IMG/VR virus record: IMGVR_UViG_3300022562_000354
Coordinates: 1 to 64,000 of that record
DNA from: a virus
Length of the DNA stretch: 64,000 nucleotides
Reading direction: 5' to 3' (one strand)
Part shown: in pieces, positions 6,209 to 31,353 of the stretch
Position numbering within the stretch: the stretch's first letter is position 1
Layout of the letters: every line of letters starts with the position of its first letter
Made by a program: the position numbers and the translations under genes
The notes under the pieces: generated by a model
Databases searched by the model: none
Seen by the model: only the letters and a program-made list of their open reading frames with translations
What the model was told of the DNA's origin: nothing

Positions 6209-7480
6209 CTACACCGAGAGGGTTTTGAAGCGCTCGGCCACTCTCTCAGTCAACGTAGCCACCTTCACAGCTCCCGGTAGAGCTGTTTCGAGCCACATGC
6301 GGACCTTTTCGTGAACAACTCGTGGCCCGTAGGCAACGAGCATCCCGATCGTCTCGCAGAACGCCTCTTCTTGGTTCTTGTTGGCGTACCCCGTGATCGG
6401 GTGCTTGGGGACTCGAATCTTCCGATCCCCCTGGTCGTAGAGCTTTTGAAACTCCTCTTTCTTCTGAAGCTCCCCGTAAGCGCGGTCGTAGCTGATCGCT
6501 TCGACCTGAAGGGCGAGGATGGGGTTCGTGTCCTTGAGCTTCGACGGAAACTCAAAGGCCCATGCGTCCCCAGGCCAGTTGTCGAGCAGCTCCTTGAGGT
6601 CGAGGTCGCCGTAGTCCCCTCGGATCGTCATCTGCCAAAAGTCCTGAGCCTCTTTACTCAAGTACGTTTTCCACAGGTGGTGCCCCATCTCGTGAGCGAG
6701 CGCGTGGACAACCCAATCGACGCCCTTGCTGCTCATCGAGGTCAGGTAGAAGTACACGACCCCGTTCTTGTACTCCCCACCCTGGTCTAGCTTCCCGTTG
6801 AAATGGGCAACGATGGGGCACTGCTTGCGGAGGAGAATGGGCGCAACGGCTGCCGCCCGTTGGCGGTATCGCTTCAGACCCTCTCGGAACATCGCGAGCC
6901 AGTCCGGGTGGTGATCGTCATCCGGCTCGTACCCTTGAACTTCAACCTTGAACCCCTCGATGACCGTGTTCTCGATGACCGGCATCTTCACGTCGAGGGT
7001 CTTTTTCTTCCACTCGGCAAACTCGACGATGACCTCTTTCATCTCCTTCCAGAAGACTTGAGCCTTCCGTTGGACGCGAGCCTTCCACTTGGGGGCTTCT
7101 TGCTCGAACTGCCTGAACTTTGCCTCTTCGCTGTAGTATTCGTCAGCGAAGCCGATGGGAGGTGACAGCTCGATCGAGAAGTCCCACGCCTTGGACCGGA
7201 GCCGCTTGTCGTAATACTTCGCGTCCCCCTCGGGGAGCCCCAACTCGTACTTCAAGTCGTGGTTGAGGAAGTGCTCGAAGAAGAGGTCGTTGAAGTTCTC
7301 GCGGTAGATGCGGAAGGCGTCCCTTAGCTCGTGGGCCGTCTTGTAGTCCTTCACCCTGGGGAGGTTCTTCCCAAGCGTGAGGAAGTCCTTTCGGAGCCCC
7401 TCAACCCACGCGAGGTCCAGCCGCCTCATGTTGGCGGCGTACCTGGCGACAACGGAAGGAACGAGCGGGTCCATACTCAC
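6209..7480 (-). CDS. Tagged zincin metallopeptidase (HExxH, anthrax-LF/MPTase-like), probable virion protein
   Basis: LAHEMGH...GYANKNQEEAFCET; N-terminal MDPLVPSVVARY and C-terminal KVATLTERVAERF tags. Confidence 0.7.
   Translation of the reverse strand: MSMDPLVPSVVARYAANMRRLDLAWVEGLRKDFLTLGKNLPRVKDYKTAHELRDAFRIYRENFNDLFFEHFLNHDLKYELGLPEGDAKYYDKRLRSKAWDFSIELSPPIGFADEYYSEEAKFRQFEQEAPKWKARVQRKAQVFWKEMKEVIVEFAEWKKKTLDVKMPVIENTVIEGFKVEVQGYEPDDDHHPDWLAMFREGLKRYRQRAAAVAPILLRKQCPIVAHFNGKLDQGGEYKNGVVYFYLTSMSSKGVDWVVHALAHEMGHHLWKTYLSKEAQDFWQMTIRGDYGDLDLKELLDNWPGDAWAFEFPSKLKDTNPILALQVEAISYDRAYGELQKKEEFQKLYDQGDRKIRVPKHPITGYANKNQEEAFCETIGMLVAYGPRVVHEKVRMWLETALPGAVKVATLTERVAERFKTLSV
6210..6216 (-). promoter_or_regulatory. 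CGGTGTA promoter-like element
   Basis: 15 nt before ATG 6194. Confidence 0.65.
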
Positions 7481-22125: not shown

Positions 22126-22392
22126 TCACTCCTTCGTGATGTAGTCGAGGGCGTCGTCGGCGTTCTTCACGAACTCGGCGAAGTTGGAGTGCAGCTCCCC
22201 GAGCTGCTCAACGATCCACTCCATCGAGCGTTCCGTTTGGAGTCGTCGGGCGAACTGGACGGCCCGGTGCATGTTGGCTTCCGCCGCCTGCATCTCCTCC
22301 AGCATGGCCTTGGCATTCCTGGCGACGTTTGGCTCCACGGGTCCTCGGGCAATCTTGTAGCGGGCAACGACGCGGTTGACGAGGGGATCCAT
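22126..22392 (-). CDS. Tagged small helical protein
   Basis: Begins MDPLVNRVVARYKIA. Confidence 0.7.
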   Translation of the reverse strand: MDPLVNRVVARYKIARGPVEPNVARNAKAMLEEMQAAEANMHRAVQFARRLQTERSMEWIVEQLGELHSNFAEFVKNADDALDYITKE

Positions 22393-22396
22393 AGGG

Positions 22397-22936
22397 TCAC
22401 CAATCCAGCTTCTTGTAGTCACTCAGCTCCCCACCACCTTCCATGGTTCGGCGAATGGCGATGAGCTTGTCTTCAGCGTCGTCCACGACGTCCCGACGCT
22501 TGATCTCCTTACGTAGATTCTCGACGATGGCCTTGGCCTTCTTCCCCGTGAGCTTGAGGTACTCGTCCTTGTCCGCGTAGGGGTTCCGCTTCAAGAGAAA
22601 GGCGTTCACCTTCTCAGGAACTTCGACCTCATCCCCAGACCCCCGGACGGCCTTCTCCAACTCGTCCGCCATCTTGGCGAGGGCTTTGCGGTCCCCGTAC
22701 GCAACCTCTTCCTGCTTGTGGGCGTGGAGGTAACCGATCGCGTGTTGGATGACCCCAAGGTCGTTCTTGGGTTTGAAAGCTGGCTTGCGGCCCCCCTTGA
22801 CCTGCATATCATCAAACACGGCTTTCACGTCATTCGGAACCGTGACGAGCTTCTTCGGCTTCTCCTTCGCCTCGACGAAACGAGCCACGACGTTACGGAC
22901 GATGAGAGTATCTTGGAAGTCTCGTAGTGGATCCAT
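22397..22936 (-). CDS. Tagged hypothetical protein
   Basis: Begins MDPLRDFQDTLIVRNVVARFVEA. Confidence 0.7.
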   Translation of the reverse strand: MDPLRDFQDTLIVRNVVARFVEAKEKPKKLVTVPNDVKAVFDDMQVKGGRKPAFKPKNDLGVIQHAIGYLHAHKQEEVAYGDRKALAKMADELEKAVRGSGDEVEVPEKVNAFLLKRNPYADKDEYLKLTGKKAKAIVENLRKEIKRRDVVDDAEDKLIAIRRTMEGGGELSDYKKLDW

Positions 22937-22937
22937 C

Positions 22938-23594
22938 TCAGTGCCTCCAGCTCTCATCGAGCTTCGTACCAGGGTCCTTGAGAACCTTGTCGAAGTCCTT
23001 GATCACCGCATCAAGTTGCTGAGCGTAGGCGTACGTGTTGGGAAGCTGCCGCATCTTCACGTTAACAGGGACGTTGTCCCCATCCGTCTCACGATGAGAA
23101 ATCACGTTCCCGTTCCACTGACGGACGCACCTTGAAAGCCAGTCTGAGGCGTCCTCCCCACCGTACTCCCGCAAGAGCTTCTCCCCAGCCTTCGACGCCG
23201 CCATTCCATTCTCGAACAGCTTGCCGTAGGCCCGGTCGAACTTCTTGGCCGCTGACTCGTCCGCGTTCTCGACCTTGCGACGGAGAGTCTCCATCTCACC
23301 AAGGAGCTTCTTGTTCTCGGCGTACCGTTTCTCCGCCTTCTTGGCTTCCGCCTTCGCCGTGTACTCCTGCATGACGCGGGCGACGACGTTGCGGATGATG
23401 ATGGCGTCTTGGAACTCGCGAAGGGCGGCCGACTTGCCCTTGAGGTACTCCCCCGCAGGCTTGTGACAGTGCTCCGAGCCGGGGTTCTTGTGCTTACAAT
23501 AGATGCTCCAGGCAGTTGCCCACGCCTGTTCGTCCGTGTAAGACGGGTTCTTTTCCTTCACGGACTTGAAATACTTGTCGACGGGGCTCGGCAT
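22938..23594 (-). CDS. Tagged protein with ChaB-like N-terminus
   Basis: EQAWATAWSIY helix followed by KSAALREFQDAIIIRNVVARV. Confidence 0.65.
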   Translation of the reverse strand: MPSPVDKYFKSVKEKNPSYTDEQAWATAWSIYCKHKNPGSEHCHKPAGEYLKGKSAALREFQDAIIIRNVVARVMQEYTAKAEAKKAEKRYAENKKLLGEMETLRRKVENADESAAKKFDRAYGKLFENGMAASKAGEKLLREYGGEDASDWLSRCVRQWNGNVISHRETDGDNVPVNVKMRQLPNTYAYAQQLDAVIKDFDKVLKDPGTKLDESWRH

Positions 23595-23598
23595 CGGC

Positions 23599-25650
23599 TC
23601 AACCCTTCATCTGCGCAGAGGCGGCAGCAAGAGCATCACGCGCCTTCGGGGGGAGCCCGGTGAACTTCTCGGACATCCACTGAAGGATCTTCTTCCCGTC
23701 CTTGGAACGGGTGAGGTTCTTGGACTTGCCGCCGTAGACGTACCGCCCAAAGACCTTCTCGTAGAGCCCACGCACCTTCATGAAGGTCGTGAAGTCCGCT
23801 TCGTTCAGGTCGAATTCCTTGGCGTTGATGATGAGCGTGAGCTGGTAGCGGGTGCTTTCCCAGTCGTGGGTCGGGTGCTTGAAGAAGCCGGGCTTCTCCC
23901 CTTCCGAGAAGCGGTCTTCCGTCGTCTTGATCTCGACGACCTGCTTGCGGGTGGCGACCGCCTCGTCGTCCTCATCCACCTCTTCGGCGTTGACGAGCCA
24001 GTGCTTGATCGACATCGCCGACCCGAACTGCACCGTGTCCTTACGCGTGGGGTGCCAGCCCTTCCCCTTGAGGTCGAAAACCTTGGAGTTGAACTTGGCG
24101 TCGCTCCCGCAAGCCTTGAGAGCCTTGACCACGTTGCCGTAGAGCCAAGCCGGGGTCTTGCCCTCGTCCCCAGAGATCGGGAACTCCCTCGACGCTACGA
24201 ACCACGTGTCGTCGTTTGCTCGACCACCGATGTAGTGCTCTTGGTAGACCTTGTGGCCCATGCCGAGGAAGACGTGCTTCGTCCCCGTACGGCCATACGC
24301 CACCTTGGCCGTGTTGGAGCGGGTGAACTCGTCCGAGTTGTACCCAGTCCCTCGCTGCATGTCCGTGATGAACAACCACTCGACGCCAGAGGGGACGCCA
24401 GCCGTCCCGTAGGCATCTTCAAAGGTGACAACCTTCGGCTTTGGGGGTTCGTAGCGAGTCCGAGGTGGCGAGTAGGACGAACCTCCGCCGCCGTAGGACG
24501 GAGCAGCGGGAGTCTTGCCGTCCAAGACATCCTTCGCCGCGTTCGCTTGGGCCATCTCCTCCGTTGTGTCACGGTCCCGGTTCAGGTCCGGGTGCAGCTC
24601 CATGACCTTCTTCTTGTGAGCAGCCTTGATCTCTTCCGGAGAGGCACCCGGCCGGACACCAAGGATCTTCTCAGCCTCCGGGATCGACATCCGAGCCCGC
24701 TTGAACCGGGCCACGACGTTACGGATGACACGGGCGTCCGCCGCCTTCTTGTTCTTACCCACTGGCTTCTCCTCGTCACCACCCATCTCAAGCGCTGCCT
24801 TGAGATCGTCGTCCTTGAGGTTCTTGATCTCTTTGGCCACCGCCGCTGCGATGAGATTGGCGAAGACCTTGTCCGGGTTGCCCTTGTCCTCGGCGGAGAG
24901 CTTCTCCATGACGTGAGCGATGCCGTGGCCGACGTGCCCCAGTTCCTCCAACACGTGCATGTGACCGAGAGCGTTCGAGACGGCTTTCATGGCCACGTGC
25001 TTGACCATGTTCTTGCCAAAGAGGCCGGCTGCGGCGAGAGGCCCCGTTGAGGTGAGGGCCGCCGCTGCGATGCCGATCGCCATGTGCGTGGCAACCGTCC
25101 TGACAGCCTTCTTCTGATGCTTGGTCATCTTTTTGCCGCTCAACACGGCCTTGATGCCCGCCCCAGCTTCCTTGTACTCGTGGACCTCTTCCTTGACCGT
25201 CTTGATGGCGTTCTTGACGATCTTCTCGGGAGCGTTCACCAACGAGTCGTGCGCCGACATGATCGTCTTGCGGCGGAAGGCGTCGTCGGAGACGAACTTC
25301 TTGACCTGCTTGGGAGCCGACTTCAGGAAGCCCGTGGCCTTGTCGCTCAGGCCCTTGAGGCGGTCCTTCCAGCTCTTCTTGGGCTTCTCCTCGTGATCAT
25401 CGTGACCCTCATCGTGGTCGTCCTCCCCTTTGTCCTTGGGAGGGGCCTTCTCAGGCTTCTCTTTCGGCTCAGGCTTCGGCTTGGGCTCCTTAGCCGGAGG
25501 CGCCTTCTGCTCCGTCTTCTTGACGGTGTGCTTGGACTTGTCCGCGTCTGGGTGCTTGCGGAGGTAGTCCTGAAGGGCCTCGGGGGTGTTGAACTCCCGA
25601 GCCTGCACCTGAAACCGAGCAACGACCTGGCGGATGAGGATGTCTTCCAT
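23599..25650 (-). CDS. Tagged multidomain protein: H/K-rich module, hydrophobic hairpin, second tag, DnaJ J-domain and C-terminal domain
   Basis: Tags MEDILIRQVVARF and KKAADARVIRNVVARFKRA; J-domain AEKILGV..ASPEEIKAAHKKKVMELHPDLN...MAQANAAKDVL. Confidence 0.75.
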   Translation of the reverse strand: MEDILIRQVVARFQVQAREFNTPEALQDYLRKHPDADKSKHTVKKTEQKAPPAKEPKPKPEPKEKPEKAPPKDKGEDDHDEGHDDHEEKPKKSWKDRLKGLSDKATGFLKSAPKQVKKFVSDDAFRRKTIMSAHDSLVNAPEKIVKNAIKTVKEEVHEYKEAGAGIKAVLSGKKMTKHQKKAVRTVATHMAIGIAAAALTSTGPLAAAGLFGKNMVKHVAMKAVSNALGHMHVLEELGHVGHGIAHVMEKLSAEDKGNPDKVFANLIAAAVAKEIKNLKDDDLKAALEMGGDEEKPVGKNKKAADARVIRNVVARFKRARMSIPEAEKILGVRPGASPEEIKAAHKKKVMELHPDLNRDRDTTEEMAQANAAKDVLDGKTPAAPSYGGGGSSYSPPRTRYEPPKPKVVTFEDAYGTAGVPSGVEWLFITDMQRGTGYNSDEFTRSNTAKVAYGRTGTKHVFLGMGHKVYQEHYIGGRANDDTWFVASREFPISGDEGKTPAWLYGNVVKALKACGSDAKFNSKVFDLKGKGWHPTRKDTVQFGSAMSIKHWLVNAEEVDEDDEAVATRKQVVEIKTTEDRFSEGEKPGFFKHPTHDWESTRYQLTLIINAKEFDLNEADFTTFMKVRGLYEKVFGRYVYGGKSKNLTRSKDGKKILQWMSEKFTGLPPKARDALAAASAQMKG

Positions 25651-25652
25651 GA

Positions 25653-25895
25653 TCAGTCCTCGGAGCGGTCGTAGTCGTAGCCGGCCTTCTTGTCCTTCTT
25701 CTCTGTCTTCTTGTCCTTTGGAGCTGACCAGCCCTTCATGTAGTCCTCCCAGGGCTTGATCATCTGGTCCTTCTTGCGGCGGATCTCGTCGAGCTTGTCC
25801 GGGTCCTTCGAGGCGGCATTCAACCCCTCCTCAAAGAGCTTGCGGATTCGGTCCAGCTCTTTCTTGTCCTTCGGCGGCATCTTGTTGTCGGCCAT
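25653..25895 (-). CDS. Small K/D-rich protein ending KKAGYDYDRSED
   Basis: GGAG SD; sits directly after the zeta-like gene. Confidence 0.65.
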   Translation of the reverse strand: MADNKMPPKDKKELDRIRKLFEEGLNAASKDPDKLDEIRRKKDQMIKPWEDYMKGWSAPKDKKTEKKDKKAGYDYDRSED

Positions 25896-25897
25896 GA

Positions 25898-27232
25898 TTA
25901 GTTGCTCTCCGATTCGCCGCTCTTCCAGGCCCGGCGTCCGATGGTAGCTCCCTTGTAGATGTAGTCGGGAAGTTCGTCCTTCTTCTCGTCGATGTACTTG
26001 GAGGCGTGCTGGTAGATGTCGTCCGCGTCGAGCTTCAACGCATCGTCAGGCATCTTGTCACCGATCTTGGCCGGCTTGCCTCGCCCCTGGAACTCCCCGA
26101 AGACGAAGTTGGCGTCGTCCTTGTGCTTCTCGTAGAAGTCGTTGAAGTTCTTGGCTCCTTGAGCATAGGAGTCCGCGAACAACTGGGCGTCGACCATACG
26201 ACCGATGCCCTTTGCTCGCTCAACAACCCCCGGCCACGACTGCTTTGGGTCGGCGTGAACAAAGAGGAACGTGGGGCGGATACCGCGCTTTTTGCATTCC
26301 TCCAAGAGCCACTCGTTCTCCGTGGCGTTCTGCTCCCCAGCGGCGTCCCACGTGGCTGCGGCACTCTTCGCAAGGTCTGGCTGAGCTGCGAGCGCGGAGC
26401 CCTTGCCGGCTGCCACACCACCAGAGGTCACGAGGATCTTCCGCTTGTCCTCGGGCATCTTCGCGATCTCATCCAGGCGGCTTACGAAGGCTCGCTTGGC
26501 GATGGCGTTGGCCGCTTGGTGAAGCACGGCGTTGTACTTGCCCCGGAACTCAGCTCGCTCCGGGTTGATGGGCTCCCCCTTGGCTTCCTTCGGAAGATCC
26601 GGCCGGGACCACTCGGGGAGAAGGTTTTTGGCAGCGTCGGTCTCAAAGACCCAGTCGTTCTTCTCCGCTGCCTCGGAGAACGCCTTGGCGGCCCCATCAG
26701 GGTTTTTCTCGAAGCTCTCGTTCATACGAGCTTCGTACTTCCGCTCGTCCTCGCTCAAGTTCTGGAGCTTGGGGAGCTTCTTAGGGGGCGGGGGGACCTC
26801 CTTACCGGAGACGCCCACGCGAGCCGCTTCCTTCGGCTTCGCCATAGGCTTCGAGGTCGGGACGTGCTTCGGACCCTTGGACTTGGAGCCGCCCTCGTCC
26901 TCCTTGCTACCCTTCTCTTCGTCCTTCTTCTTGACCGTGTGGTTACCAGGATCCGCCTGGGGGTGGTCATGAAGGTACTTCTTGCGAGCCTCGGGGGTCG
27001 CGTGCTCCATCGCTTGACGGAAGCTGGCGACGATGTTGTGGACGAGAATGGCGTCTTGAAATTCGCGAAGGGCGGCGGTCTTTGTGCCCTGCTTCTTCTT
27101 GACGTGGTGGTTCTTGGGGTCGGCATCCGGGAGGCCATGAAGGTATGTCTTCCTGGCCTCCGGGGTCGCGTGCTCCATCGCCCTTCGGTGGACAGCGGCG
27201 ACGACGTTGCGGACGAGGCGAAGGTCTTCCAT
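25898..27232 (-). CDS. Tagged zeta-toxin-like P-loop kinase
   Basis: Two tag + MEHATPEARK.YLH..P.ADP.NH.VKKK repeats, then ILVTSGGVAAGKGS, WDAAG and FLFVHADP..S...VERA...GRMV. Confidence 0.65.
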   Translation of the reverse strand: MEDLRLVRNVVAAVHRRAMEHATPEARKTYLHGLPDADPKNHHVKKKQGTKTAALREFQDAILVHNIVASFRQAMEHATPEARKKYLHDHPQADPGNHTVKKKDEEKGSKEDEGGSKSKGPKHVPTSKPMAKPKEAARVGVSGKEVPPPPKKLPKLQNLSEDERKYEARMNESFEKNPDGAAKAFSEAAEKNDWVFETDAAKNLLPEWSRPDLPKEAKGEPINPERAEFRGKYNAVLHQAANAIAKRAFVSRLDEIAKMPEDKRKILVTSGGVAAGKGSALAAQPDLAKSAAATWDAAGEQNATENEWLLEECKKRGIRPTFLFVHADPKQSWPGVVERAKGIGRMVDAQLFADSYAQGAKNFNDFYEKHKDDANFVFGEFQGRGKPAKIGDKMPDDALKLDADDIYQHASKYIDEKKDELPDYIYKGATIGRRAWKSGESESN

Positions 27233-27260
27233 TAGGCAGCTCTCTCTGCGTAGAGCCGCC

Positions 27261-27270
27261 TATCAAAGAT
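27261..27270 (-). promoter_or_regulatory. Putative late promoter ATCTTTGATA
   Basis: Heads the tagged-protein operon 27232-22126. Confidence 0.5.
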
Positions 27271-27281
27271 TCACCGCCCCA

Positions 27282-28559
27282 TCAGGCTTGCTTGGCCTCG
27301 TTTTCCGGGTTGCCTTCTCGGAGTGTCAGAACAGCCTTCCCGGACAGCTCCGTGATGAGGGCTCGCTCGATGTTTGAGCCCGGAATGTCGTAGGAGAGCT
27401 GACGGAGGGTGTCCTCCATGATGGAACGGAGGGCTCGGGCTCCGGTAGGGCGCTTCTTCGCCTCCAAGGCAATCGCCCGGATGACCTCTTCCTCGAAGTC
27501 CAGGTGGACCCCATCCATCTGGAAGAGAGCCTTGAACTGCTTCATGATGGCATGACGCGGTTCCGTGAGGACTCGGATCATCTCGCTCTCGGTCAGCTCC
27601 AGTGTCGTCGTGAGCACCGGGAGGCGCCCCATGAACTCGGGAATCAACCCAAATTCGAGGAGGTCTTCCTCACTCGTCACCGTGTAGCTCTTGGACTTGT
27701 CGATGGTCTCACGGTGCTTCGCCCCGAAGCCCAACGAGGCACCCTTGTTGATGCGGGACGAGACGATCTCCTCGATGCCAGCGAATGAACCAGCGCAGAT
27801 GAACAGGATGTTCCGCGTGTCGATGGTGTCGTAGGCCGCCGCCATGCCGTTCTTACCCGAACGGGGCACACTCACCTTGGATCCTTCGAGGAGCTTCAAG
27901 AGCGCCTGTTGGACCCCTTCCCCGGTCACGTCCCGGTACCCTGCTCGCTCGCGGCCACCTTTACGGGCGATCTTGTCGATCTCGTCGATGACCACGATGC
28001 CCCACTCGGCTCGCTGGATGTCCCCCTGAGCGTCCTGAATGAGCCCTTGGAGCAGGGTCTCTACGTCATCCCCCACGTAGCCCGCTTGCGTCAGCTTGGT
28101 CGCGTCCCCCACGTAGAAGGGGACGTTGAGCATCCGGGCGATCGACCGCGAGATGTGCGTCTTCCCGGTACCCGAAGGGCCGAGGAGCAGGATGTTGGAC
28201 TTGTCGATCTCGACCTCTTCTTTGAGGCCCCCGCTCACCGTGATCTCGACCTTGCCGTCTTTGAGCACCTTGCGGCGTTTGAAGTGGTTGTAGACCGCGA
28301 GGGCGATGTCGGTCTTCGCCTTCTCTTGGCCGATCACGTACTCATCGAGGTACGACTTGATCTCCTTCGGTGTCTTGAGCGGTTCCTCTTTCGGCTGAGC
28401 GGCGAAGTTCCCCTTGCGAGCACCGGCCTCGATCTCCTTGGAGGCCGTCTCCACGCAGCGATTGCAGATGAATGGCCCCTCGTCGGGGTGGGCGGCGACG
28501 AGGTTTTTGACTTCGTTACGGGGCCGCTTGCAAAAGCTGCAACAGACGGGAGCGCTCAT
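27282..28559 (-). CDS. clpX: ClpX ATP-dependent protease ATPase subunit
   Basis: CSFC/CNRC Zn domain, YVIGQ, GPSGTGKT, DATKLTQAGYVGDDVE, IDEIDK, RDVTGEGVQQALLKLLEG, LGF loop and TGARALR. Confidence 0.95.
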   Translation of the reverse strand: MSAPVCCSFCKRPRNEVKNLVAAHPDEGPFICNRCVETASKEIEAGARKGNFAAQPKEEPLKTPKEIKSYLDEYVIGQEKAKTDIALAVYNHFKRRKVLKDGKVEITVSGGLKEEVEIDKSNILLLGPSGTGKTHISRSIARMLNVPFYVGDATKLTQAGYVGDDVETLLQGLIQDAQGDIQRAEWGIVVIDEIDKIARKGGRERAGYRDVTGEGVQQALLKLLEGSKVSVPRSGKNGMAAAYDTIDTRNILFICAGSFAGIEEIVSSRINKGASLGFGAKHRETIDKSKSYTVTSEEDLLEFGLIPEFMGRLPVLTTTLELTESEMIRVLTEPRHAIMKQFKALFQMDGVHLDFEEEVIRAIALEAKKRPTGARALRSIMEDTLRQLSYDIPGSNIERALITELSGKAVLTLREGNPENEAKQA

Positions 28560-28568
28560 GCTCTAACA

Positions 28569-29744
28569 CTACACCGAGGCCAACGCCTCCCGTACGAGTT
28601 TTTGCAGGTGTTCAGGCAATTCGGGGCGTGTTGGCTCGTCACGTCCCACCATGAGGTTCTCGAAGCGCTCTTGCACCGCTCCGTCCCAAGAGCCCTTGAT
28701 TTTGAAGTGCCCGAGAGCAAACAACTCCGCGAAAGCCTCGCCTTCCTTGCGACTGTAAGGTGAGGTCCACCAGCGGGACTTGTCGAAGTCGTCGGGAAGA
28801 TTGTGCTTTCTCTCGTAACGGTGACCTAGCTCATGCACAAGGATGTAGTCGAGGGCGCCGTAGGACCCGTGGGTGCGCTTCAAGACTTTGGGGGTCGCCC
28901 GCACCATGAGCACGTCACCCGAGGACTTGTACTTGCCCCCTGCGGTACCTTGGAAGTCTCGTGGGCTCGCCAGGGCTACCTTGAGACCCCCCGATAGGGC
29001 CTTCCGGCGCCACCCTTTCAGGTCGTCCCAGATGGACTCCAGCGTGGTGACGTAGTGCCCGAGCTTTTTCTGGTCGAAGCCTACGAGGTTGAGGTAGGTG
29101 TTCCCGCCGACCGTCACCTCTTTGGGGACGATCTTCCCACCCTCGTTGGAGAAGTACCGGATCAGGTCGCCCGCCATAGGCTTGATGTCCTGCTCCCAGG
29201 CGCGTTTGGCCGCCCCCTCGCTGGCGGGGTTGCGGAAGGATTCCCCCTGGTAGTTCTTCTTGGTCCCCGCATCTTGCAGGAACCACCAAAGGGAATGCGC
29301 CTTGTTTTTCAGGTCCTTCTGGCCTTGAGGTGTCTTCGGGGAGTCGAAGCGGAAGGTATCCTTGAACCACTCGGCGATCTCGGCAGCCTCATCCGGGTCG
29401 AAGTGGGCGAACAGGCCGTCTATCTTCCGCATAAGCTCGTCGAGCAAGCTCGCTGAGAACATGAACCGAGCCGCCACCCGGCGAGCCATCCGGTCCTGGT
29501 AGAAAAAGGCGACCCGTTCTTCTATCGAGGCCCCGGACTTCTCGATCTTCTCCAACTTGTCGTAGTAATTGGGGTCTTCAGTCAGATGGTCGTACGCTAT
29601 CTCCCGAGCGATCTGAGGATCGTCGGTATGCTCCATCTCGACGCGAACCCCCTTCGCGACCTGAGCGGGGTCTACCCCTTCGGGTGGTCCCTTGTCCGCC
29701 AATCCGCCTGGGATTTTGTCTTCGAGTGAGGTGGGGAACATCAA
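28569..29744 (-). CDS. DUF5661-like N-terminal domain, tag and zincin metallopeptidase
   Basis: GVRVEMEHTDDP..AREIAYDHLTEDPNYYDKL; ASIEERVA..RMARRVAARF; LVHELGH...SPYSRKEGEAFAE. Confidence 0.7.
   Translation of the reverse strand: MMFPTSLEDKIPGGLADKGPPEGVDPAQVAKGVRVEMEHTDDPQIAREIAYDHLTEDPNYYDKLEKIEKSGASIEERVAFFYQDRMARRVAARFMFSASLLDELMRKIDGLFAHFDPDEAAEIAEWFKDTFRFDSPKTPQGQKDLKNKAHSLWWFLQDAGTKKNYQGESFRNPASEGAAKRAWEQDIKPMAGDLIRYFSNEGGKIVPKEVTVGGNTYLNLVGFDQKKLGHYVTTLESIWDDLKGWRRKALSGGLKVALASPRDFQGTAGGKYKSSGDVLMVRATPKVLKRTHGSYGALDYILVHELGHRYERKHNLPDDFDKSRWWTSPYSRKEGEAFAELFALGHFKIKGSWDGAVQERFENLMVGRDEPTRPELPEHLQKLVREALASV
28570..28576 (-). promoter_or_regulatory. CGGTGTA promoter-like element
   Basis: 10 nt before the clpX ATG. 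Confidence 0.7.
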
Positions 29745-30512
29745 TCACACATCCGCGTAAACAATGCAGTCCTCGCTCCACACGAGACCCTCGCAGTGGA
29801 CCTTGCCGCTCGGTTCGATGACGCAGATGCCGCCTTCACCGAAGTTGTTGTTTGCCTCCCGGCCGTAGCGGTTGGAGACGATCAAGGTAGTCTTGTTCTC
29901 CTCGACGAAGTCCATCCACGAGGTCGCCGGGAATGCTCCGTCCCCGAAGTTGGCTGACAAGCAAACGATGTCCGCATCACCCGGCTGGTACAGGTCCGTC
30001 CATGTCTTGGAGACCTTGTCCCTGATGTCCCGGCATACGAGTAGACCAACCCGCCGCTCGACCCCGTCAAAGTTGGCCTTCACAACGGGAGGGTTGGACC
30101 TCCCCGCTTCGGCCCAGAGGAAGTCGTTGGCCCAGCGGTTGATCTTCCGCATCGACTCCAAGTAGCCGAAGGGGTCCACGTAGACCTGACTGTTGAACAG
30201 CTTGTTGGTCTTGTCGTCCAGCTCCACCATCCCCCACACGAGGTGGACGTGGAGCTTGGCAGCGAGTTGCCCCATGAGCTTCACGGTGGGGATTTCGTCG
30301 ATGGCTCGAAGAGCCGGACCGAGGGTGATGACCTCAGCATCCACGAGAGCCTCACCCGGCCCCATGTACGAGTAGCCCGTCGTTGCCAGCTCAGGCATCA
30401 CGATGAGCTTCGCCCCACCGGCCGCTGCCTGCTCAACGAGCTTCACCAAGCGGCGTTGGTTCTCCCGCTTCTGACGGAAGGCCGGGGCAAACTGGATCGT
30501 GGCTACCTTCAT
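29745..30512 (-). CDS. Carbon-nitrogen hydrolase (nitrilase family)
   Basis: MKVATIQF; catalytic triad residues in PELATTGY, RKIN and VCRD; VSNRYG. Confidence 0.88.
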   Translation of the reverse strand: MKVATIQFAPAFRQKRENQRRLVKLVEQAAAGGAKLIVMPELATTGYSYMGPGEALVDAEVITLGPALRAIDEIPTVKLMGQLAAKLHVHLVWGMVELDDKTNKLFNSQVYVDPFGYLESMRKINRWANDFLWAEAGRSNPPVVKANFDGVERRVGLLVCRDIRDKVSKTWTDLYQPGDADIVCLSANFGDGAFPATSWMDFVEENKTTLIVSNRYGREANNNFGEGGICVIEPSGKVHCEGLVWSEDCIVYADV

Positions 30513-30549
30513 GGGTCACCCATGGGTAGCTTACAAGAAGAACCGGGAA

Positions 30550-31353
30550 TCAAAACAGCAACCCAAGCCGATCGAGGTTGTAGTAGACCGCCTTGAGGAT
30601 CTTCGCCTTGTTCGTTGGAGTCAGAACCCCTTCGACTTCCTTCCACGTAGTCGAGAGCCGAAGGGCTAGATTCACCAGCTCTTGATTGGAATTTCGAGCG
30701 TGGTTGCGGATGGCTTCCATCTTCGCGTAACGCGGAGTTTCATCCACGACTTGCTGCATCCACGCTCGAACCTCAGACGGGTGGTTGATGTACGCCCGGT
30801 ATTCGCTGTCCGAGAGGTCCCCTTGGGACGGGATTTCACTCTTGTTGGGGTTCTTTGCCGAGGGGTTCTTCTCTTTGAAGACCGAGTCGGCCGCATGCGT
30901 GGCTTCGTGGATGAGGATCGAAAACAGCGAGTACGGGAGACAGGTCTCGTGCGAACACGACCAGATTGGCTGGGTCATGCGCTCCGACTGGAAGTCCTCC
31001 GGAGTGAAGGCCCCGTTCAGTTCGAGAACGATGACCGGACCACCGTGCCACGTTCCGAAGCCCCCACCTAACAGCGCCGTCCCCTTGTTCCTCGATGAAC
31101 GGCTACGGACTAGGACTAGAACGTCAACGGTACCCTTCCCGTCAGCGGCATCGACACTCAGCCTTCGGCTGAGGATCTGATTGACGGACCCAAGAGGCTC
31201 ATCTTGAGGTTGGCGTCGTTTCATCCACGTGATGACATCGGGTGCCAACTCGTGTGTGACGAAGCGCTCGATCTCTTTCTTGTCGATCCCTACCGGACGA
31301 GCGGCAAGCCTAACGGCATACCTTCGAGCCACGCGGATCGCCATCGGGTCCAT
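30550..31353 (-). CDS. Tagged zincin-like metallopeptidase
   Basis: MDPMAIRVARRY; LIHEATHAAD...YINHPSEVRAW. Confidence 0.65.
   Translation of the reverse strand: MDPMAIRVARRYAVRLAARPVGIDKKEIERFVTHELAPDVITWMKRRQPQDEPLGSVNQILSRRLSVDAADGKGTVDVLVLVRSRSSRNKGTALLGGGFGTWHGGPVIVLELNGAFTPEDFQSERMTQPIWSCSHETCLPYSLFSILIHEATHAADSVFKEKNPSAKNPNKSEIPSQGDLSDSEYRAYINHPSEVRAWMQQVVDETPRYAKMEAIRNHARNSNQELVNLALRLSTTWKEVEGVLTPTNKAKILKAVYYNLDRLGLLF

Follow-up and report, generated by a model that had tools for sequence, protein, structure and literature searches.

What is one and the same short peptide doing on a string of otherwise unrelated phage proteins? The question is raised by a 64,000-nucleotide stretch of viral DNA ('the window'), which is part of a 109,944-bp contig (G000; IMG/VR record IMGVR_UViG_3300022562_000354; CheckV completeness 23%) and in which a peptide typified by RNVVARF ('the tag') recurs in a cluster of minus-strand genes and again outside it. 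The original prediction saw in the tag an amphipathic helix that would load injected effectors into the phage head and be cut off after alanine. The tag is here found to be helix 1 of a previously undescribed mini-domain of ~50 residues. From gene context, the type of cargo and analogy we lean, tentatively and short of conviction, to this being a portable docking module, most likely for loading enzymes into the assembling head.

A peptide repeated in frame

The run of minus-strand genes in question comprises 22126-22422 (98 amino acids, aa), 22397-22957 (186 aa), 22938-23594 (218 aa), 23599-25650 (683 aa), 25653-25895 (80 aa), 25898-27232 (444 aa), clpX at 27282-28559, 28569-29744 (391 aa), a CN-hydrolase gene confirmed with Pfam at 29745-30512, and 30550-31353 (267 aa). 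That the peptide recurs about ten times is borne out by pattern and by hidden Markov model (HMM), there being seven strong copies and three or four weak ones, all of them read in frame in genes of the minus strand, at 22.1-31.4 kb and again at 6.2-7.5 kb. Their placement is also as first described, at N-termini, at domain junctions and once at a C-terminus (6212-6268). The copies, with the cargo of the protein that has two of them, are as follows.

27083-27232, minus strand: N-terminal complete mini-domain of the 444-aa zeta-like kinase protein, MEDLRLVRNVVAAVHRRAMEHATPEARKTYLHGLPDADPKNHHVKKK (P0001, domain 1-47, 87 bits)
26924-27082, minus strand: internal complete mini-domain of the same protein, residues 51-103, made up of the tag helix KTAALREFQDAILVHNIVASFRQ, then A-M-E-H, then ATPEARKKYLHDHPQADPGNHTVKKK (HMM 23.1 bits)
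25898-26923, minus strand: charged linker and P-loop kinase cargo (zeta-toxin-like) of the same protein (PF06414, E 0.003, below cut-off)
25504-25650, minus strand: N-terminal complete mini-domain of the 683-aa J-domain protein, MEDILIRQVVARFQVQAREFNTPEALQDYLRKHPDADKSKHTVKK (P0011, residues 1-49, 93 bits)
24685-24753, minus strand: helix-only tag immediately ahead of the J domain, at a domain junction within the 683-aa protein, NKKAADARVIRNVVARFKRARMS (HMM 12.4 bits)
23361-23432, minus strand: helix-only tag at a junction of the 218-aa protein, SAALREFQDAIIIRNVVARVMQEY (HMM 23.7 bits)
22865-22936, minus strand: N-terminal tag of the 186-aa protein, MDPLRDFQDTLIVRNVVARFVEAK (HMM 24.3 bits)
22342-22392, minus strand: N-terminal tag of an ~88-aa protein, MDPLVNRVVARYKIARG (HMM 24.3 bits)
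29451-29492, minus strand: in the 391-aa protein, weak 'RVAARF' variant with the DUF5661 domain on one side and the HELGH zincin body on the other (regex matches)
31300-31353, minus strand: weak N-terminal variant MDPMAIRVARRYAVRLAA on the 267-aa HEATH protein (orthologues)
7433-7474, minus strand: N-terminal tag MDPLVPSVVARYAA of a 423-aa HEMGH protein, outside the cluster (HMM 7.0 bits)
6212-6268, minus strand: weak C-terminal tag-like stretch VKVATLTERVAERFKTLSV of the same 423-aa protein (sequence reading)

For two of the small proteins, those of the 186-aa open reading frame (ORF) and of the ORF 22126-22422 (the ~88-aa protein), the ATG at the tag is likely to be the true start. Across the six-frame translation of the whole contig the pattern [RHQ][NQRS][VI]VA[RSA][FYV] has 6 matches, every one of them in the coding frame of minus-strand ORFs at 22.4-27.2 kb, and no tag copies were found elsewhere in the six frames. 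An HMM built from the seven strong copies scores those copies at 12-24 bits against noise of at most 4.6 bits; its next-best matches are an orthologue from a related phage (12.3 bits) and then the N-terminus of the 6209-7480 gene, whose tag has 83% identity over 12 residues to the copy at 22342-22392. When carriers are compared with one another by BLASTP, similarity is confined to the tag or mini-domain region, as between the 218-aa and kinase proteins where it is limited to residues 37-86. Matches to the core motif are over-represented within the first 30 residues of proteins (binomial P = 6e-4 in G000, where 5 of 10 matches are N-terminal, and 4e-4 in G001, a syntenic relative introduced below). 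At residues that are identical between copies the codons are identical in 93 of 176 cases; as codons differ, selection is on the peptide and not on a DNA signal, and a DNA-level repeat was rejected on the same ground.

Could the resemblance nevertheless be chance, or the functionless trace of a recent duplication? The weak copies (29451-29492, 31300-31353 and 6212-6268) are without an HMM score, which is what such an explanation has in its favour. For the strong copies it is already refuted, and overall we consider it negligible: comparable matches are lacking in the other five frames and in the rest of the contig, codons have diverged, and the element is retained in orthologues with 37-76% identity overall and in 1,082 protein clusters (below). 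Two of the weak copies, RMARRVAARF in 28569-29744 and MDPMAIRVARRY in 30550-31353, are below detection by the tag HMM and fit a variant, 'LRVAARY', that is N-terminal on about 9 G001 proteins and kept in orthologues at 37-40% identity. Orthologues of the 267-aa HEATH protein in G001 and G004 keep MTLTLRVAARY and MDVLTLRVAARF. An N-terminal 'RVASRF' of 69260-69931 was dropped as a tag since its orthologue does not keep it.

The description of the helix as amphipathic has to be given up. Eisenberg helical moments of the tags are 0.11-0.58, values reached by 13-84% of shuffled sequences, so that they are no higher than those of shuffles and an amphipathic encapsulation peptide was rejected. The likeness to encapsulin cargo-loading and microcompartment encapsulation peptides is otherwise considerable: they too are portable, terminal or inter-domain, provided with flexible linkers and found on unrelated enzymes, ferritin-like ones included. 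Unlike those amphipathic helices or extended peptides, whose shell protein is encoded nearby, the tags are not amphipathic and the only shell is the phage capsid.

What did stand is that the element is uncharacterised, modular and portable, being present on unrelated proteins and at fusion points. The G003 orthologue of the 391-aa zincin (28569-29744) starts right at the tag and in G005 DUF5661 is a separate gene; internal copies coincide with points of fusion. Helix-only tags at C-termini occur elsewhere too, for instance in P0047 and P0003.

The mini-domain, its relatives and its cargoes

The mini-domain consists of helix 1 (the tag), a short strand with [A/S/G]-x-E-[F/H], helix 2 (S/T-PEALKKYL-H-D/E-H) and a second strand, P-x-A-D-x-x-x-H-x-V-K-K, after which come a long charged and disordered linker and then a variable cargo. 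In three of the window copies what comes after the helix is A-x-E-[F/H]-x-[S/T]-PEA-[L/R]-x-x-YL-x-x-HP-x-AD-x-x-x-H-x-VKK and the charged linker; stripped-down versions with helix 1 alone are at N-termini, at fusion junctions and at some C-termini. With the alignment of the three copies, a word-indexed search found at least 304 proteins, the best 120 at E <= 7e-13, many of them on contigs of 360-570 kb. When 1.84 billion representatives were scanned in full with HMMER, 1,082 clusters (50% identity) came out at E <= 1e-3, 244 of them at E <= 1e-10. The mini-domain is N-terminal in about 85 of 122 proteins, and in 23 of the 122 there are 2-3 copies.

In a logo of 109 copies P, Y, P and A are invariant, with E, H, D, H and V nearly so, and helix 1 is much less conserved than the rest (1-2 bits per column). 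Counting from a notional cut behind the Glu, the P3 residue is present in 107 of 109 copies (A 88, S 13, G 6) and the P1 Glu in 104; the forms in the window are RAME-H, QAME-H and QARE-F. The original notion of cleavage after alanine, splitting polyproteins into domains, finds no support in this: what is conserved and resembles a site is [A/S/G]-x-E-[F/H], and in the model it is part of a beta-strand within the folded mini-domain. AlphaFold2 models the 53-residue window copy at 26924-27082 with a mean predicted local distance difference test score (pLDDT) of 88.6 as a helix at residues 2-23 (the tag), a strand at 25-27, a helix at 30-39 and a strand at 48-50. In two runs pLDDT was 88-97 across the mini-domain, with the strand containing the A-x-E motif pairing with H-T-V-K, a placement that by itself speaks neither for a cut in the prohead nor against one.

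Has anything like it been seen before? No Pfam, NCBIfam or PHROG model matches the mini-domain. Foldseek of the 53-residue model against the PDB gave a best E of 1.6, no fold being assignable, as is usual at such length, and VIA-align of the model against 48,161 chains gave a best Z of 3.3 and no fold. Against PDB sequences the profile has just a 13-residue, chance-level match, KEYLKQHPNADPK, to ankyrin-repeat proteins (E 0.8), the ESM Atlas gave no usable match, and a text search for the motif strings across 8.4 million papers found none. Among 50,697 phage records there was no match by region megablast or double-module tblastn, and no cultured phage with the domain; a pattern scan of 185,579 GTDB species genomes showed no relative, and locus searches with the 186-aa protein and with alignment A2 found none. 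Within the searches made, the mini-domain is limited to viral and metagenomic contigs. IMG/VR samples 3300044796, 3300020049 and 3300017991 contain near-complete genomes with the domain.

Two known families were considered and rejected. A relic of a J domain should have the invariant HPD tripeptide that follows helix II; in the mini-domain H-P is invariant and the residue behind it is D in 38 copies, G in 23, N in 21, Q in 17 and K in 10, and within the 683-aa protein Pfam DnaJ picks out residues 328-377, the true J domain, and not the mini-domain. For the haemophore family MHB (PF16525) matches overlapping the module are sub-threshold, two of 120 members reaching 17-20 bits where 27.4 is the cut-off, and the mini-domain profile search brought up no PDB relative of that family.

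With such a fold in hand it may be asked whether the mini-domain is simply an autonomous small domain with a role of its own, metal binding by the invariant Glu, His, Asp and His being one candidate and nucleic-acid binding with the Lys-rich tail another. The tag would then be merely its first helix, its seeming portability a result of easy shuffling in huge phage genomes. The confident and compact AlphaFold2 fold fits this well, as do E, H, D and H residues that are invariant or nearly so (the polar residues are spaced H-P-x-A-D-x-x-x-H with a K/E/G-rich tail behind), the low copy number per genome, and the occurrence of the module between the domains of proteins acting on DNA or RNA, namely topoisomerase IB, Dps and RtcB-like ones. 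We nevertheless think it unlikely, given that helix-only versions, which are without the invariant polar residues, are on about 9 N-termini per genome and kept in orthologues, that the N-terminal bias is strong, and that there is no match to a known metal- or DNA-binding fold.

The helices themselves come in flavours, LREFQDALIVRNVVAR, LRVAARY, LIRLAHxNPELRxxLLPLL and, in one contig, IAxELxRIAxxL, each common to several genes of one genome; five genes upstream of the major capsid protein (MCP) gene in L051 have one flavour in common. Such sharing within one contig would fit a pairing of the helices with one another, in which multivalent carriers, their 2-3 copies connected by disordered linkers, would knit enzymes into a complex or condensate inside or outside the virion. 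The 2-3 copies in some proteins are in keeping with this, and so are helices that are hydrophobic on all sides and not amphipathic. The 22 residues of helix 1 extend, in the model, past the elements against which it packs, and part of it is for that reason probably free. Most carriers, however, have a single copy and the monomer is modelled confidently without a partner, and we rate self-association as improbable.

The cargoes are indeed unrelated, though not quite as first listed. In the window the J domain of the 683-aa protein (PF00226 E 4.7e-10), DUF5661 in the 391-aa protein (E 1.6e-10) and the HExxH motifs of three carriers (HELGH, HEATH and HEMGH) are secure, the zeta-like kinase match is weak and sub-threshold, and the 'ChaB-like' assignment has no Pfam match. 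None of the replication enzymes recognised in G000 or G001 has the tag, which is as foreseen. In the wider set the majority of cargoes are without a recognised family; those with one are zeta kinase (in P0181 with E 1.4e-20), topoisomerase IB, Dps/ferritin, RelA/SpoT, DRAT, HEPN, RtcB-like, NlpC/P60, HAD and J domain. Topoisomerase IB, with a catalytic domain of eukaryotic type, was seen three times (L055:9044-12337, P0128 and P0184). The classes resemble known virion-delivered effectors in the case of zeta-like kinase, topoisomerase IB, Dps, RelA/SpoT and ADP-ribosyltransferase. The kinase cargo of the 444-aa protein has 62% identity to the C-terminal domain of SNF2-intein polyvalent proteins of 1606-1930 aa, which are encoded directly downstream of portal and beside an InPase/poly(A)-polymerase protein; portal-adjacent polyvalent proteins are predicted to be packaged and injected (PMC5512222).

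Directly downstream of the kinase gene is the 80-aa, highly charged ORF 25653-25895 (minus strand), which is beside the kinase in G001 also (73% identity) and which is possibly a partner or antitoxin-like protein of the kinase.

Gene neighbourhoods and the proposed docking target

G001 is 362,937 bp long and 76% complete by CheckV, and from the CheckV figures for it and G000 a complete genome would be ~480 kb. Its head module has genes for terminase, for portal (224889-226745), for proteins of 1347 and 503 aa, for a scaffold-like protein rich in Q (215792-217180), for one resembling a decoration protein (215056-215682) and for a 293-aa MCP (214134-215015). The MCP is 82% identical to that of the uncultured phage LR745208.1 (485 kb), 47% to that of Tunturiibacter phage Tunturi_5 and 38% to that of Bacillus phage G, and the group is therefore placed with the phage G-like megaphages. 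The 503-aa protein (217200-218711) matches the PHROG 'head maturation protease' (phrog_18299, E 1.8e-9).

Gene neighbourhoods were read in 36 IMG/VR loci. Carriers are between the portal and MCP genes in at least 5 contigs (L045, L048, L051, L055 and L059); that in L045 and L048 is a 937-aa orthologue of the 1347-aa G001 protein and that in L055 a 1097-aa topoisomerase IB protein. In at least 9 loci (L030, L031, L033, L035, L041, L044, L046, L056 and L062) carriers are beside phrog_240 head-protein genes and a gene for a giant protein of 2773 aa, and a small tagged protein is encoded upstream of the terminase genes in G001, L045 and L048. The tagged operon, furthermore, is headed, as had been proposed, by a T-rich, late-type element; tail and lysis genes have it too. 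It and the clpX gene within the cluster are the two other features to be placed.

27245-27260, minus strand: T-rich promoter-like element GGTGAATCTTTGATAG, 28 nt upstream of the tagged operon (27232 down to 22126)
27282-28559, minus strand: untagged clpX within the cluster, with zinc-finger N-domain and LGF loop (PF07724 E 5.7e-31, PF06689 E 8.2e-10)

The T-rich element (GGTT..TTT.ATAG) is 19-36 nt upstream of five genes, at 27260, 30531, 51442 and 56370 in the window and at 69959 in the contig (minus strand), the genes being the tagged operon, the nitrilase gene, a holin-like gene, that of a 1521-aa tail protein and a small tail-module gene.

If the mini-domain is for docking, it would bring unrelated enzymes to one common phage structure, the most likely target being the assembling head, and the enzymes would be packaged and delivered with the DNA in the manner of T4 internal proteins, P1 Dar proteins and portal-adjacent polyvalent proteins. 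The portal, MCP and phrog_240 context, the relatives of the kinase, the T-rich element and the protease gene give this circumstantial support; of the head-loading code as originally envisaged it is the context, the cargoes and the protease gene that count in its favour, while cleavage after Ala and the amphipathic helix find no support. Giant-phage prohead proteases cut after A-X-E, removing N-terminal propeptides of 20-24 residues (PMC10052503), and since a head maturation protease gene is present processing would be possible. Such a protease might trim the module at A-x-E or might leave it whole; a cleavage site, if there is one, would on its sequence be between the Glu and the [F/H] of [A/S/G]-x-E-[F/H]. 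The internal copies would have come about by fusion of small domains (DUF5661, a Cys/His-rich domain) in front of proteins that were already tagged, and not from a polyprotein design.

The internal proteins of T4 (IPI-III, Alt) have a capsid-targeting sequence that is taken off by the prohead protease gp21. There, as here, a short N-terminal sequence is common to otherwise unrelated, enzyme-like or anti-host proteins with an x-E motif behind the signal, and the cargo classes here include ADP-ribosyltransferase. Unlike the T4 peptide of ~10 residues, what is seen here is a folded domain of ~50 residues or a helix of ~20, internal and C-terminal as well as N-terminal. There is no sequence similarity, PF03420, a model silent in the control genomes as well, was not detected here, and packaging and cleavage are putative here. 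N-terminal capsid-targeting signals are known in both T4 and P1 (PMC9024508). In P1 a signal of <30 residues sends the large anti-host Dar enzymes into the head, and the authors of that work suspect that N-terminal tertiary structure matters (PMC9024508). The Dar proteins have no consensus N-terminus, in contrast to the recognisable consensus across many proteins and genomes described here.

A parallel for the putative cut is in the phiKZ/SPN3US-type phages, where a head maturation protease gene is also part of the head module. The [A/S/G]-x-E of the mini-domain is 18-27 residues from the N-terminus as compared with 20 and 24 for the AXE propeptides of SPN3US gp45 and gp225 (PMC10052503). Those phages are, however, of another lineage than the present ones with their phage G-like MCP, and the motif here, a putative site, is inside a conserved folded module. 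The polyvalent and MuF-linked polymorphic toxins (PMC5512222) have the same effector repertoire (zeta-like kinase, RelA/SpoT, ADP-ribosyltransferase, peptidases, InPase neighbours), the same position next to portal and the same modular shuffling. Their handle is MuF or portal fusion, unlike the new mini-domain and its many small single-cargo carriers, and Pfam reported no MuF domain in the carriers scanned. Multi-domain carriers adjacent to portal do exist, namely the 937-aa protein of L045 and L048 and, in L055, a topoisomerase IB joined to the module; most carriers are small.

Several results weigh against delivery to the head. In the folded domain the A-x-E is part of a beta-strand that is modelled with confidence, no obvious place for a protease to cut, conservation runs 26 residues past it, far beyond what a cleavage site needs, and a helix-only copy that is internal or C-terminal cannot be an N-terminal propeptide. 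Each genome has just 1-4 full mini-domains, as counted in ten records of 230-437 kb of which four are complete, with terminal repeats. A look at gene starts in G001 did not bring up the T-rich element. Among carriers the 23599-25650 family is the most conserved, and it is in a non-structural block, among nucleotide-metabolism genes, beside clpX, thyA and folA. The mini-domain was not found in LR745208.1, phage G or Tunturi_5, in all three of which the MCP positive control worked, and because of this absence the module is accessory and not a core assembly signal. Co-folding of the mini-domain with MCP, protease 1-290 and scaffold 1-160 gave a score of 0.13, the mark being 0.32, and counts neither way.

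The proximity of clpX deserves separate thought. As in the window, a carrier is beside clpX in a block conserved in at least 6 contigs (L032, L036, L037, L047, L049 and L060). Might module and disordered linker be a handle that is recognised by phage ClpX, or by host DnaK via the J-domain carrier, and so time the unfolding, degradation or remodelling of accessory proteins? In these divergent contigs clpX adjoins both a small tagged gene and a mini-domain gene, and it is present in 5 of 5 near-complete domain-bearing genomes examined. An N-terminal tag followed by a long disordered linker and a folded cargo is the usual layout of a degron, and this ClpX has the LGF loop for ClpP docking. The V/I-rich basic core of the tag resembles the SspB tail LRVVK and DnaK-binding motifs. 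Yet G000 and G001 gave no match for clpP (PF00574), in G002, G006 and G007 a long distance separates clpX from the domain genes, and the adjacency falls in a block that is generally syntenic. Nor do the genes seem to be under the same control. A CGGTGTA motif, which tagged genes had been said to lack, is at 28570-28576 (minus strand), inside the 3' end of the tagged DUF5661-zincin gene and ~10 nt before the clpX start; the statement was partly right, the motif there being directly upstream of clpX. With this motif of its own upstream clpX seems to be transcribed apart from its tagged neighbours; the tagged operon has the T-rich element. Internal and C-terminal copies and the carriers in head modules would also be left unexplained, and phage G has clpX without the domain. 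With five domain genomes having clpX and phage G having clpX alone, a link between the two is neither shown nor excluded, and a chaperone or unfoldase handle strikes us as a rather poor prospect.

Returning to head loading, one may go further, albeit on more doubtful ground: phage G-like megaphages may have an address system that can be recognised in sequence, the folded HP-x-AD mini-domain and several helix-only flavours together directing a variable collection of enzymes to the head, from which they would be injected; the head protease would be able to trim at [A/S/G]-x-E, though it need not. The collection may take in kinase, topoisomerase IB, Dps, RelA/SpoT, ADP-ribosyltransferase, peptidases and the J-protein. 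If the module is a virion address, the injected proteome of uncultivated huge phages would be predictable from metagenomes, the capsid-targeting principle of T4 and P1 would extend to a folded and conserved domain, and there would be a cargo-loading handle for very large capsids. Huge phages (>200 kb) have hundreds of genes of unknown role and almost none of these phages has been cultured, so that a domain which is recognisable, confidently folded and undescribed, and which marks a specific and fast-changing subset of proteins, many of them toxin- or effector-like, is a handle for sorting proteins. Even with another function, a family of 1,082 clusters merits a domain entry.

Capsid, clpX and actin-like genes of the relatives

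Some features of the related genomes are of interest in their own right. The 293-aa MCP is 81-94% identical across contigs (L021:14134-15015, L048:17459-18337, L055:16681-17562 and L059:18996-19868) whose protease and scaffold proteins are only 28-60% identical, an unusually strong conservation for a capsid protein. The phage with the 82% identical MCP, LR745208.1 (L066), has neither clpX nor mini-domain; the same is true of Tunturi_5 (L067), and the clpX of phage G (L068) has 46% identity. In G003 clpX (C1:215735-218053) matches in two pieces (1-132 and 130-416) inside one 781-aa open frame, which suggests that it holds an inserted element such as an intein.

The protease candidate (503 aa; L021:17200-18711, alignment A7) had no match among PDB sequences, and PF03420, the gp21 family, had none in G000 or G001, that model also having matched none of the control genomes. 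The invariant Cys/His cluster of the candidate (C178, C185, C188, C199, H201, C224 and H226) resembles a zinc-binding insertion. The Q-rich scaffold-like protein (L021:15792-17180, alignment A8) keeps a tag-like KKADLCVKVARQMLG in four orthologues, which could be a related docking helix or a coincidence. Finally, among the virion-module genes of G001 is that of an actin-like 'Volactin' (PF25216, E 2.5e-74) at L020:6698-7711 (G001 186698-187711), and it is kept in many of the loci compared.

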